From Escherichia phage PE37: 64,000 nucleotides of DNA. Numbering within the stretch: position 1 is the stretch's first letter; each line of letters starts with the position of its first letter. The position numbers were made by a program, and so were the translations under genes. The notes beneath the pieces were generated by a model. It worked only from the letters and a program-made list of their open reading frames with translations, was not told where the DNA came from and did no database searches. This document shows positions 3,450 through 53,057 of this stretch, in pieces. Location: sequence record NC_054929.1; one strand, 5' to 3'.

Positions 3450-4020
<571 letters not shown>

Positions 4021-4465: not shown

Positions 4466-4939
4466 ATGAAAACATATCAAGAATTTATTACTGAAGCAGC
4501 TATTAATTCTCAAATTATTGCTGAATCTTTTACTGATCTTTTGAAATTTAAAAAAGGTCAAAAAATCACTGCTGTATTGGATGATGGTACAGAAGTTGAG
4601 ATGGATGTACAGGGATATAATTATGCAGTAGATGGAAAACTGTATAATAAATCTCATGCTAAATTTGATTCATTTGACGACTTTGTTAATACAGTTGAAG
4701 ATGAAAAAACTCGTCGATCCATTGCAACTGGTGATGCTAAGGTTCTTATGGCACATGGTCATGAACGCATTCGCGCTAAACAGAATAAAATGGGCGAAGA
4801 TAATTTCGCATTAGTTGGTTATCAATCTGGTAAACAAACTTATGGTTATCAGCGTACTGCTACCATGTATAATAAAAATGGTAAAATTGCCTTTGTGAAT
4901 AGTAAGGGTTCTATTCAGTACGTTAAATCGTTCAAATAA
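4466..4939 (+). CDS. capsid internal protein (Ip family)
   Basis: N-terminal capsid-targeting sequence MKTYQEFITE with protease site after E; 157 aa, length differs from T4 ipII/ipIII. Confidence 0.75.
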   Translation: MKTYQEFITEAAINSQIIAESFTDLLKFKKGQKITAVLDDGTEVEMDVQGYNYAVDGKLYNKSHAKFDSFDDFVNTVEDEKTRRSIATGDAKVLMAHGHERIRAKQNKMGEDNFALVGYQSGKQTYGYQRTATMYNKNGKIAFVNSKGSIQYVKSFK

Positions 4940-10289: not shown

Positions 10290-10297
10290 TATAAATA
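10290..10297 (+). promoter_or_regulatory. late promoter TATAAATA
   Basis: exact TATAAATA about 26 nt upstream of ATG 10323. Confidence 0.5.
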
Positions 10298-18408: not shown

Positions 18409-19428
18409 ATGAAAACTCGTTCTCAAATTGAAGATATGGTTCGTAATGCCAGCTATACTCGTGATGTTATGACATTTTTGTGCCAAAATAATTTAGACCC
18501 TGATAAAGTTAATCGTGATATTCACTTTAAATATATGAATAGCAGTGAATGGTTACGTCATTTTAGTAAAGCGGGATATATTACACAAATGACTGCTCGT
18601 GAGCAGCTCACCGATTTCTGTAAAACTATTGATTATAAAAATCCTCTATTTGTTCAAGGCGTTGGTCAAAGTAAGGTCGATTTATCATCTGGATTTTTCA
18701 ATCCAAATCATTATCGTATTGAATGGAGATTTATTGCTCTGTTCCGTAGACAATTAAAGCAAATTTTGTCTACTGCTAGTCGATTAAAAGGCTCTGATAT
18801 TAACTTAAAGAATCTGAAATTTGATGGTTATACTCTTCAGATGGAAGTAAGACCGTTAAAAGAAAATAATAGAACTGCACGAATTAGCTTTAAACCTAAT
18901 ACAAAAAATTCTCTTTCAATTTGTGAATGCCTTAAATCACAGTTGACAGAAGCATTTAAGTATATGGATGTTGTTGCTGCTGTTCAATCTAAGATTTTAC
19001 CTCGTTTTGAACGATTTAAGTTAGATACAACATCATATGAACTTGATATGATCGTTTCATTTAAATACGATTTTTTGAGAAAGGACGAAGTCCCGCAAGA
19101 GAAAAAGCAAGAAGTGCAAGATAACTTAAATTTATCTAATTACTCATCAAACGATCCTAAATTTTGGATGTATAGTTCAGGCAATAAAGATGCATGGAAA
19201 TTCAATAAAGTGAATTTTCTTCCTATTGAAAATCCGAGTCTTAAACCTGTTGAAAAATGGCACGCGGATGCGATTGGGAAGTCTATCAAGGCAGTAGATG
19301 ATGAACTCGTTAAAGCAACTAATGAAGTGTTAGAAGCTGAAAAGATGCTAGAAAAAGCTCAAGAAAAAGTCAAAAATCTCACGAAGCAACGTTCTAAACT
19401 GAACAATGCACTAAATGCACTGAACTAG
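18409..19428 (+). CDS. hypothetical protein with C-terminal coiled coil (tandem set B)
   Basis: ATG+SD; C-terminal coiled coil. Confidence 0.65.
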   Translation: MKTRSQIEDMVRNASYTRDVMTFLCQNNLDPDKVNRDIHFKYMNSSEWLRHFSKAGYITQMTAREQLTDFCKTIDYKNPLFVQGVGQSKVDLSSGFFNPNHYRIEWRFIALFRRQLKQILSTASRLKGSDINLKNLKFDGYTLQMEVRPLKENNRTARISFKPNTKNSLSICECLKSQLTEAFKYMDVVAAVQSKILPRFERFKLDTTSYELDMIVSFKYDFLRKDEVPQEKKQEVQDNLNLSNYSSNDPKFWMYSSGNKDAWKFNKVNFLPIENPSLKPVEKWHADAIGKSIKAVDDELVKATNEVLEAEKMLEKAQEKVKNLTKQRSKLNNALNALN

Positions 19429-48706: not shown

Positions 48707-49000
48707 ATGAAAAAATTTATTTTTGCTACAATTTTTACTTTGGCTTCTTGTGCTGCTCAGCCTGCTATGGCAGGATATGATAAAGACTTGTGCGAATGGT
48801 CTATGACTGCAGATCAGACTGAAGTTGAAACTCAAATTGAAGCGGATATTATGAATATTGTTGAGCGCGATCGTCCTGAAATGAAAGCTGAAGTGCAAAA
48901 ACAACTTAAGTCTGGTGGTGTAATGCAGTATAATTATGTTCTGTATTGCGATAAAAACTTTAATAACAAAAATATCGTAACCGAAATCACAGGCGAATAA
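48707..49000 (+). CDS. sp: periplasmic Spackle-like protein
   Basis: 97 aa with signal peptide; SD GAGGAG; 61.3 position. Confidence 0.75.
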   Translation: MKKFIFATIFTLASCAAQPAMAGYDKDLCEWSMTADQTEVETQIEADIMNIVERDRPEMKAEVQKQLKSGGVMQYNYVLYCDKNFNNKNIVTEITGE

Positions 49001-49001
49001 T

Positions 49002-49637
49002 ATGATTTATTATATGCACAAAAATCCACCGTTTAAATACGGTAAATTTCCTGATGCACAATGTTATAATATAACACCTGATGAAAATAACCGTGGATAT
49101 CTTATTGGCACAATTTTTGTAATTGTTAAAGATAACGAAATCGTTGCCTGGGCAGATTTTAAAGGTACAACATATGATGTTAATCCGGTGCCTTTCACAT
49201 ATTACAATATAATGGATTTGGCGTACGATTATAATTGGTTTAATCATGACACGTTGGCTCCTCATATTGAAGGTGTAGGATTTGACATCTCTTATTCTAG
49301 TTACTCGTTGTGTCCTATGAGCCGAGCTCATAGAGAGCCTGAATATTTTTCATTTCGTCGGCGTGTAGACTTTAAACGCAGCACAGAGTATGTCGGTGGA
49401 ATATTTGTTAAAGATAATCGAATTACTCGCATTATTTATCCTTTGGGCGGTGGTCAAAAAGATATTGATGTTGATTTAGACTTTACTGAAAACATCATTA
49501 ATCATATTGCTTCTGTGTATTTTGATATTGATCACAAAATTGTAATATGTGGATATGAATTACCATCAGAAAAACAGTCTAAAGTAAATGTTTCTATTGA
49601 TGACCAAATTTTTAATGCTTTTATGAATAGAGGTTAA
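49002..49637 (+). CDS. hypothetical protein (61.2 position)
   Basis: ATG; 211 aa. Confidence 0.6.
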   Translation: MIYYMHKNPPFKYGKFPDAQCYNITPDENNRGYLIGTIFVIVKDNEIVAWADFKGTTYDVNPVPFTYYNIMDLAYDYNWFNHDTLAPHIEGVGFDISYSSYSLCPMSRAHREPEYFSFRRRVDFKRSTEYVGGIFVKDNRITRIIYPLGGGQKDIDVDLDFTENIINHIASVYFDIDHKIVICGYELPSEKQSKVNVSIDDQIFNAFMNRG

Positions 49638-49638
49638 T

Positions 49639-49803
49639 ATGAAAACATATAAAGAATTTATCAAAGAAGATATGGTCGCTGGAGATTCAGGTGGTAATCC
49701 TGAAAATATCTCTACTGGAACAACGTCAGGCGCTGTAGTAAATAAAGGTCCTGAACAGATTCCTAAAAAGAAGAAAGAGGAATCTAAAGAAAAAGAAGAG
49801 TAA
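49639..49803 (+). CDS. small protein with capsid-targeting-like leader MKTYKEFIKE
   Basis: ATG 1 nt after upstream stop; N-terminus resembles Ip capsid-targeting sequence; not in ORF track. Confidence 0.45.
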   Translation: MKTYKEFIKEDMVAGDSGGNPENISTGTTSGAVVNKGPEQIPKKKKEESKEKEE

Positions 49804-49805
49804 AA

Positions 49806-50834
49806 ATGTCATCAATACCTTGGATTGATAATGAGTTTGCGTATCGTGCATTAGCTCATTTACCTAAATTCACACAAGTAAATAACAGTTCAACTTTTAA
49901 ATTGCGGTTTAGATGTCCTGTTTGTGGAGATTCAAAAACCGACCAAAATAAAGCCCGTGGATGGTATTATGGTGATAATAATGAAGGAAATATTCATTGT
50001 TATAACTGTAACTATCATGCACCAATCGGAATATATTTAAAGGAGTTTGAACCCGATTTATATCGTGAGTATATCCTTGAAATAAGAAAAGAAAAAGGTA
50101 AAAGTCGTCCAGTAGAAAAACCTAAAGAACTTCCTAAGCGACCTGAGAAGAAAATAATTAAATCTCTTCCGTCATGTGTTAGATTAGATAAACTGGCGGA
50201 AGACCATCCAATTATAAAATATGTAAAAGCTCGTTGTATTCCAAAGGATAAATGGAAATATCTTTGGTTTACAACCGAATGGCCTAAATTAGTTAATAGC
50301 ATAGCACCGGGAACATACAAAAAGGAAATTTCTGAGCCTCGTCTTGTTATTCCAATTTATAATGCTAATGGAAAAGCTGAGTCTTTTCAAGGACGTGCAT
50401 TAAAGAAAGATGCTCCTCAAAAATATATCACCATTAAAGCTTATCCTGAGGCAACAAAAATATATGGAGTCGAACGAGTTAAAGATGGTGATGTATATGT
50501 TCTAGAAGGACCTATAGATTCACTTTTTATTGAAAATGGTATAGCTATTACGGGTGGTCAATTAGACCTAGAAGTTGTTCCATTTAAAGATAGACGTGTG
50601 TGGGTCTTAGATAATGAACCTCGTCACCCTGACACTATCAAACGAATGACTAAATTAGTTGATGCAGGAGAAAGGGTTATGTTTTGGGATAAATCTCCCT
50701 GGAAATCAAAAGATGTCAATGATATGATTAGAAAGGAAGGTGCAACCCCTGAACAAATTATGGAATATATGAAAAATAATATTGCACAGGGGTTGATGGC
50801 TAAAATGCGGCTATCTAAATATGCCAAGATTTAA
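49806..50834 (+). CDS. 61: DNA primase gp61
   Basis: 342 aa; zinc ribbon CPVCGDSKTD...CYNC; TOPRIM-like region. Confidence 0.9.
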   Translation: MSSIPWIDNEFAYRALAHLPKFTQVNNSSTFKLRFRCPVCGDSKTDQNKARGWYYGDNNEGNIHCYNCNYHAPIGIYLKEFEPDLYREYILEIRKEKGKSRPVEKPKELPKRPEKKIIKSLPSCVRLDKLAEDHPIIKYVKARCIPKDKWKYLWFTTEWPKLVNSIAPGTYKKEISEPRLVIPIYNANGKAESFQGRALKKDAPQKYITIKAYPEATKIYGVERVKDGDVYVLEGPIDSLFIENGIAITGGQLDLEVVPFKDRRVWVLDNEPRHPDTIKRMTKLVDAGERVMFWDKSPWKSKDVNDMIRKEGATPEQIMEYMKNNIAQGLMAKMRLSKYAKI

Positions 50835-51127: not shown

Positions 51128-52467
<1,340 letters not shown>

Positions 52468-53049: not shown

Positions 53050-53057
53050 TATAAATA
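53050..53057 (+). promoter_or_regulatory. late promoter TATAAATA for soc
   Basis: exact TATAAATA about 30 nt upstream of soc ATG. Confidence 0.6.

Follow-up and report, generated by a model that had tools for sequence, protein, structure and literature searches.

Head assembly in bacteriophage T4 is among the most thoroughly studied of assembly pathways, and the list of prohead-core components and substrates of the prohead protease, gp21, is regarded as closed: gp22, gp21 itself, gp67, gp68, IPI-III, Alt, gp23 and gp24. The internal (Ip) proteins of T4—IPI, IPII and IPIII—and those of other T-even phages carry a capsid-targeting sequence (CTS), are processed by gp21, and are ejected with the DNA. 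The capsid protein gp23 is cut by gp21 after Glu65, the mature form, gp23*, beginning at Ala66. Until the prohead expands, its disordered N-terminal region faces the interior of the shell and probably touches the core; once cleavage and expansion have taken place, the same region is found on the outside, as the N-arm and N-fist (PMC9546572). The N-fist (residues 66-91), an unusual structure at the N-terminus of gp23*, touches four subunits and contributes to the Soc site (PMC7136217; PMC9958956). For the CTS, suppressor analysis (Mullaney & Black 1996, summarised in PMC9026906) ascribed targeting to residues 4 and 7 and processing to residues 8 and 10. Longer pro-pieces are also known: gp50, gp53 and gp54, head and ejection proteins of the giant phage SPN3US, have propeptides of more than 100 residues that are removed by a gp21-like protease.

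We analysed a stretch of 64,000 nucleotides (the window) from Escherichia phage PE37 (NC_054929.1), a segment of a Tequatrovirus (T4-like) genome which between positions 49000 and 50200 is 97-99% identical to ECP52 and RB27. The original prediction had drawn attention to a short open reading frame (ORF) within it (Table 1), whose product starts with what resembles the CTS of the internal proteins, at a locus held to be unexpected for such a leader. The reading frame turns out to be one that T4 itself possesses: it is identical at 161/165 nt to gene 61.1 of the T4 reference (18966-19130), two residues of the product differing (F4Y and I26T); it matches phrog_1823 over residues 1-54 (E 7e-34); and it occupies the position between genes 41 and 61 that marks the gp61.1 family. 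By this identity it is T4 gene 61.1, already annotated as 'hypothetical protein', and hence not a new locus. Its neighbours had been named correctly, 61.2 (adfA) upstream and primase gene 61 downstream; further 5' of adfA come helicase gene 41, dmd, tifA (61.4) and spackle. The genes are closely packed: the 61.1 ATG begins 1 nt beyond the adfA stop (TAA, 49635-49637), and the primase ATG follows the 61.1 stop after 2 nt. A Pfam search with gp61.1 returned no match, the Gp23 family included; no paper on the function of the gene was found in the literature searched, and it is missing from the core-gene list of Petrov 2010.

Table 1. Features of the gene 61.1 locus, with the reference internal-protein gene of the same window
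Feature	Position	Strand	Remarks
Reference Ip gene	4466..4939	+	157 aa; leader MKTYQEFITE; DUF7412, E 6e-96; phrog_3155 'internal virion protein'
adfA (61.2), anti-DarT factor A, upstream neighbour	49002..49637	+	Pfam PF23813 AdfA, E 2.4e-135
Shine-Dalgarno GAGG	49630..49633	+	5 nt 5' of the gene 61.1 ATG; read off the sequence
Gene 61.1 ORF	49639..49803	+	54 codons plus TAA stop; product MKTYKEFIKEDMVAGDSGGNPENISTGTTSGAVVNKGPEQIPKKKKEESKEKEE
CTS-like leader MKTYKEFIKE, codons 1-10	49639..49668	+	ends I-K-E; predicted gp21 cut at 49668/49669, after Glu10
gp23-homologous segment, codons 2-38	49642..49752	+	corresponds to gp23 57-93: propeptide end, cleavage site, N-fist
N-fist counterpart, codons 11-36, DMVAGDSGGNPENISTGTTSGAVVNK	49669..49746	+	corresponds to gp23 residues 66-91, BLASTP register
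Charged Lys/Glu tail, codons 43-54, KKKKEESKEKEE	49765..49800	+	polybasic (KKKRKKK-like) in most homologues
Gene 61, DNA primase, downstream neighbour	49806..50834	+	annotated relatives; DNAG_N match

The likeness of the leader to the CTS, on which attention had first been fixed, stands up well. T4 IPII and IPIII both begin MKTYQEFIAE, to which the first ten residues of gp61.1 are identical at eight; the two differences, Q5K and A9K, are outside the determinant residues, and Tyr4, Phe7, Ile8 and Glu10 are each identical to their counterparts in IPII and IPIII. Since all four mapped determinants are thus preserved and the differences lie elsewhere, the leader looks competent by the known sequence rules. 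The resemblance, as measured by scanning the sequence, is far beyond chance. A six-frame scan of the window for identity of at least 6/10 to MKTYQEFIAE found only the leaders at 4466 (9/10) and 49639 (8/10), no 10-mer reached this level in the shuffled window (n=20), and a degenerate pattern for the leader DNA matched at the same two positions only, with 0 expected. The two are close in nucleotide sequence as well, the gene 61.1 leader being identical at 26/30 nt to that of the gene at 4466 and at 22/23 to that of T4 ipIII. The putative gp21 site (hydrophobic residue 8, Glu10) reads I-K-E in gp61.1 and its motif is conserved family-wide, cleavage itself being a prediction. Its P1' residue is Asp, and gp21 sites are not known to have residues other than Ala, Ser or Gly there, a point against processing.

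The gene at 4466, cited originally as the canonical copy of the leader, is rightly so described, its product being an internal virion protein (Table 1). It follows e and denV, is neither T4 IPII (100 aa) nor IPIII (193 aa), and has the sole other CTS-type leader of the 64-kb window, so that the ip locus differs from that of T4. A scan of phage RB49 (1-150 kb) for CTS-like leaders yielded only 61.1 (MIGFKQFVEE...) and gp24 (MTHIFTELLRE↓S); the Alt-like proteins of this phage start MFNLEIDDLMIES and MFKKLQDFRLSEE. No Ip-type gene with the RB49 61.1 leader was seen in these 150 kb, so that covariation of leader and CTS could not be demonstrated.

Sequence comparison shows the leader to be part of a larger homology, missed by the original prediction, to the cleavage-site and N-fist region of gp23. 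BLASTP aligns gp61.1 with gp23 without gaps, 16 of 37 residues being identical (E 1e-8), in a register that sets Glu10 of gp61.1 opposite Glu65 of gp23 (L-T-E↓A-E-I-G-G-D). Profile-profile alignment with gp23 (hhalign) gave a probability of 97% (E 8e-11) with the short forms of the gp61.1 family described below and 98.4% (E 4.9e-15) with the long, and a PDB-wide profile search with gp61.1 returned gp23 chains only. The length of the mature gp23 chains in the PDB, 456 residues, agrees with gp23* beginning at Ala66, and a second lineage places the site in the same register as gp23 and 61.1: in the KVP20 record the mature capsid protein is annotated as starting after L-N-E. Whichever 61.1 is paired with whichever gp23 among seven lineages, 15-22 of the 37 core positions carry the same residue, the common motif being G-D-x-G-x-x-x-x-N-I-A-x-G-x-T-S-G-A-V-x-x-x-G-P. 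Identity between 61.1 and the gp23 N-fist of its own lineage averaged 18.3 of the 37 positions, against 17.5 for other pairings (permutation p 0.045), the seven pairs being genus-level and approximate; so marginal a difference is too weak to show co-variation. The gp23 of one cyanophage lacks the N-fist motif.

The homology is confined to residues 50-101 of gp23, a region that also contains the petite/giant mutations A66D, A94V and G97S. Like gp23, then, gp61.1 has a propeptide cleavage site, with its Glu in register, and an N-fist segment; unlike gp23, the family retains only a 37-50-residue segment and has a polybasic or K/E tail where gp23 continues into the N-arm, and nothing of the HK97-fold body (A and P domains, E-loop, insertion domain) is present in the 54 residues of gp61.1, which AF2 predicts to be disordered. 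Homology to gp23 explains why 61.1 homologues of 54-165 aa are often named 'major capsid (domain-containing) protein' in GenBank and UniProt; on the extent of the alignment these names are misannotations. There appears to be no earlier description of a protein in which an Ip-type leader and a charged tail flank a segment paralogous to the cleavage site and N-fist of gp23.

By tblastn the module is present in 1431 phage records, from phages of Escherichia, Klebsiella, Aeromonas, Acinetobacter, Vibrio and other hosts, and an exhaustive HMM search gave 52 representatives at 50% clustering. Two forms are found. Short forms, of 50-70 aa, have CTS-like starts: MKTYKEFIKE, MKSFKEVMNE, MIGFKQFVEE, MIKFKDFVES, MKIKTFDEFVEA and others. 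Long forms, of 120-165 aa (phrog_2086), have no CTS-like leader and start instead with an N-domain of about 100 residues, which AF2 models as a confident helical bundle, the module that follows being disordered; these occur in Slopekvirus, Acinetobacter, Aeromonas and Vibrio phages and in Mosigvirus, the sister genus of T4. Conservation of the N-terminal similarity in homologues, on which the original prediction had staked itself, thus holds for the short forms of several lineages and fails in many others, Mosigvirus included, where the ~100-aa domain stands in place of the leader. The exchange is precise: the long form of Mosigvirus phage PhAPEC2 reads ...KEIFKELPLFE↓DMVAGDSGG..., and the T4-type leader of Tequatrovirus substitutes for the N-domain exactly at the conserved Glu (E↓DMVAGD). 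Because of the distribution of the long form among genera, which was our guide here rather than a phylogeny, that form is apparently ancestral and the T4 form derived.

Whatever precedes it, the putative cleavage site is retained. Of 75 members, 74 have a Glu 3-5 residues ahead of the G-D core, and two positions before this Glu (P3) 60 of the 75 have L, I, M, V or F, in keeping with the gp21 motif; the 20 residues past the core contain a median of 6 K/R. Comparison with orthologues (pS 0.4-0.8, pN 0.11-0.31; pN/pS 0.19-0.54) indicates that the 61.1 core is under purifying selection. Position is no less conserved: in Straboviridae 61.1 is always between helicase gene 41 and primase gene 61, a synteny seen in seven genera, and it is often the lone gene there and overlaps the helicase stop codon. 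Insertion of the counter-defence genes dmd, tifA, sp and adfA varies among phages; 61.1 is the constant gene beside the primase and is among the most position-stable small genes of the family.

The N-domain of the long form did not align with the gp23 propeptide (residues 1-50), and fold searches with it matched nothing. In having some 100 residues followed by a hydrophobic-x-Glu site the long form is like gp50, gp53 and gp54 of SPN3US, its processing being putative; unlike them, it shows no sequence or fold similarity to their propeptides. In BFVD the long-form model matches parts of A0A411BBR2 (672 aa), A0A1B1IT15 (913), A0A6J7WVK5 (396) and A0A7S5R3P1 (387), all uncharacterised phage proteins; they may be fusions, and so Rosetta-stone candidates able to reveal a partner of the N-domain. 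Some 61.1 homologues, long or short (P0038, P0053, P0055), extend beyond the polybasic tail into a second domain, whose CTS-like start, M(N/T)E(V/M)..FKQFVE.LEA, suggests an Ip-like gene immediately 3' of 61.1, to which certain phages have fused it or into which they read through.

Two further reading frames near the locus deserve a record. Most close relatives have a 118-aa ORF which separates adfA from 61.1, as in Ec_O157kw (357 bp, L001 3137-3493) and RB27-type relatives; the window (junction 49637/49639) and T4 are without it. Its final 14 codons (SIDDQIFNAFMNRG) repeat the AdfA C-terminus, and it looks like an insertion with a repeated junction. As a candidate for a detached long-form N-domain, the 118-aa ORF of the RB27-type relatives was rejected (hhalign probability 0.1%). 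On the other side, between the primase region and dam, is a 186-aa ORF (51128-51688, +), its stop codon overlapping the start of dam. Searches of Pfam and of PDB sequences found no match for it; within it a D...E-x-K pattern, directly upstream of the Dam methyltransferase, is reminiscent of PD-(D/E)XK nucleases. The region is found in T2 and about 144 records at coverage of at least 80%, annotated 'hypothetical'.

Because a soluble protein here has both an Ip leader and a gp23 cleavage-site/N-fist segment, the simplest reading of gp61.1 is as a head passenger, targeted to the prohead core and processed by gp21; we favour it tentatively, at rather less than an even chance. The protein would be a small disordered pro-peptide composed of the 10-residue Ip-type leader, the paralogue of the gp23 cleavage site and 26-residue N-fist, and the Lys/Glu-rich tail. 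The leader, possibly together with the N-fist-like segment, would co-assemble it with the scaffolding core; gp21 would cut at I-K-E↓D, behind Glu10, a site corresponding exactly to L-T-E65↓A66 of gp23, and yield a 44-residue peptide with a new N-terminus mimicking that of mature gp23*. Held on the packaged DNA by its charged tail, this peptide would leave the head with the DNA at infection; alternatively, it might be expelled like other core fragments. That gp61.1 is targeted, cut and carried in heads, and what its tail does, we infer from sequence comparisons. The prediction is sharp and inexpensive to check, turning on one semi-tryptic peptide in virion mass spectrometry: the cleaved product would start at Asp11 and show the signature DMVAGDSGGNPENIS(T/I)GTTSGAVVNK, the unprocessed protein (M)KT(F/Y)KEFIKEDMVAGD....

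Within the family, the exchange of leader and N-domain exactly at E↓DMVAGD is as expected if both are removable N-terminal pro-pieces. The genomic location of 61.1 is no argument against a head role, since gene 40, which acts in head assembly, lies in the same conserved replication cluster. Other observations do count against such a role: the early RNA, the lack of a late promoter, the strict helicase/primase synteny, and the existence of long forms with no CTS-like leader. The exact late promoter sequence, TATAAATA, does not occur on the + strand between 10290 and 53050, and matches with one mismatch are at chance level. In the T4 data set that assigns these classes, 61.1 RNA is early, and IPII and IPIII are early as RNA and late as protein; gp61.1 was not detected in a time-resolved proteome of T4 infection, and the late promoter or late protein that would suit prohead assembly, as for the Ip class, was not found for it. 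Nor is gp61.1 listed in the accessible parts of the published T4 virion mass spectrometry (main text and supplements), and it is absent from the classical inventory of core proteins (PMC9958956). Knock-down of 61.1 by CRISPRi-ART in laboratory E. coli scored -0.84 ('Not Fit'), with no fitness effect. The gene is dispensable on this host, as fits a non-essential core or internal protein; the neutral result is equally compatible with the rival readings below.

Exact TATAAATA boxes are under-represented on the + strand of the window as a whole, 4 being found against about 11 expected. Those at 3452-3459 and 3465-3472 precede e, denV and the Ip gene; the others are at 10290-10297 and at 53050-53057, the last being after dam, near the soc of annotated relatives.

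How far gp61.1 can be counted with the internal proteins bears on the function first proposed for it, protection against restriction in the manner of IpI. It shares with them the leader pattern (MKTY.EFI.E), the targeting determinants and Glu10, as well as near-identical leader DNA, and like them it is small, charged and non-essential. Unlike them, it has as its mature part a conserved capsid-protein paralogue, present from Escherichia to Vibrio phages, and not a hypervariable lineage-specific domain; throughout Straboviridae its gene keeps its place between 41 and 61, the ip loci being polymorphic; it lacks a nearby late promoter and in many genera replaces the leader with a 100-aa domain; and its packaging and ejection are only predicted. 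Because Ip proteins are hypervariable and host-specific, and 61.1 is conserved, position-stable and under purifying selection, the anti-restriction analogy is weak, the least supported part of the original proposal.

Of the alternatives to a head passenger, the one that survives best, though we consider it unlikely, is that gp61.1 is an early-made cytoplasmic mimic or decoy, in which the cleavage site and N-fist of gp23 are copied in soluble form and which never enters heads. It could compete for whatever binds the original: gp21, as a competitive substrate or regulator, a chaperone, the sites where the N-fist docks during assembly, or a host immune sensor of capsid protein. The early RNA and lack of a late promoter, awkward for a head role, are natural here, and the homology is both strong and specific to a functional capsid segment. 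The company kept by 61.1 is suggestive too, since its neighbours dmd, tifA and adfA are proven counter-defence genes, small-protein genes of the same operon-like early cluster; Srikant et al. describe an 'anti-TA island' containing these three and call its other genes 'attractive candidates'. Unlike these genes, which come and go, 61.1 is the conserved anchor beside the primase gene, kept at one position in phages of Vibrio, Aeromonas, Acinetobacter and Enterobacteria, and such conservation at a fixed position is atypical for a host-specific anti-defence factor. A capsid sensor is on record in the Lit exclusion system, which responds to a peptide within the first quarter of gp23, the Gol peptide, at about residues 93-122, and the most conserved stretch of gp23 in our alignment (93-116) is immediately downstream of the mimicked segment. 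However, the homology reaches only residues 93-101 of the Gol region and is divergent there; adjacency is all that could be shown. A decoy also leaves unexplained the conserved hydrophobic-x-Glu motif and an Ip-type leader with its targeting residues intact. Were gp61.1 cytoplasmic after all, it would be a capsid-protein mimic within a counter-defence cluster, of relevance to capsid-sensing immunity.

Less likely still, to the point of being improbable, is a role as a replication accessory, a small DNA-binding protein working with the gp41 helicase and gp61 primase, in which resemblance to gp23 and the CTS would be historical and now functionless. Its invariable place between the helicase and primase genes, often alone and overlapping the helicase stop codon, would be accounted for, as would the polybasic tail and early expression alongside replication genes; but the presence of gene 40 in the same cluster weakens the argument from synteny. 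That the ORF arose by chance, or is a decaying fragment of gene 23 with an accidental CTS-like start, is hardly credible: its shortness, the undetected protein and the absence of a knock-down phenotype might suggest it, but the conservation of the module across so many records and 52 distant representatives, together with the selection data, effectively refutes it, and the good Shine-Dalgarno sequence, the tight coupling to neighbouring genes and the extent of the leader match also speak against it.

We return to gp61.1 as a head passenger. With a conserved gene that joins the Ip targeting leader to a duplicate of the cleavage site and N-fist of the capsid protein, the list of core components and gp21 substrates would gain a member. 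In its fullest form the proposal is that Straboviridae possess a free-standing, protease-activated copy of the N-fist, a tenth T4 substrate of gp21, which has a gp23*-like N-terminus and a DNA-binding tail and acts in the maturing head; this we regard as possible, but doubtful. If it is true, the copy might occupy the sites on scaffold or capsid that recognise the gp23 N-terminus, or link the DNA to the shell, and the head-targeting pro-pieces would be interchangeable, T-even phages using the Ip-type leader and other genera the 100-aa N-domain. Gene 61.1 would then provide a natural experiment on recognition by scaffold and protease, and a handle on the unsolved problem of what brings proteins to the scaffolding core of T4, a localisation that in the words of a 2023 review of the T4 head 'remains mysterious' (PMC9958956).
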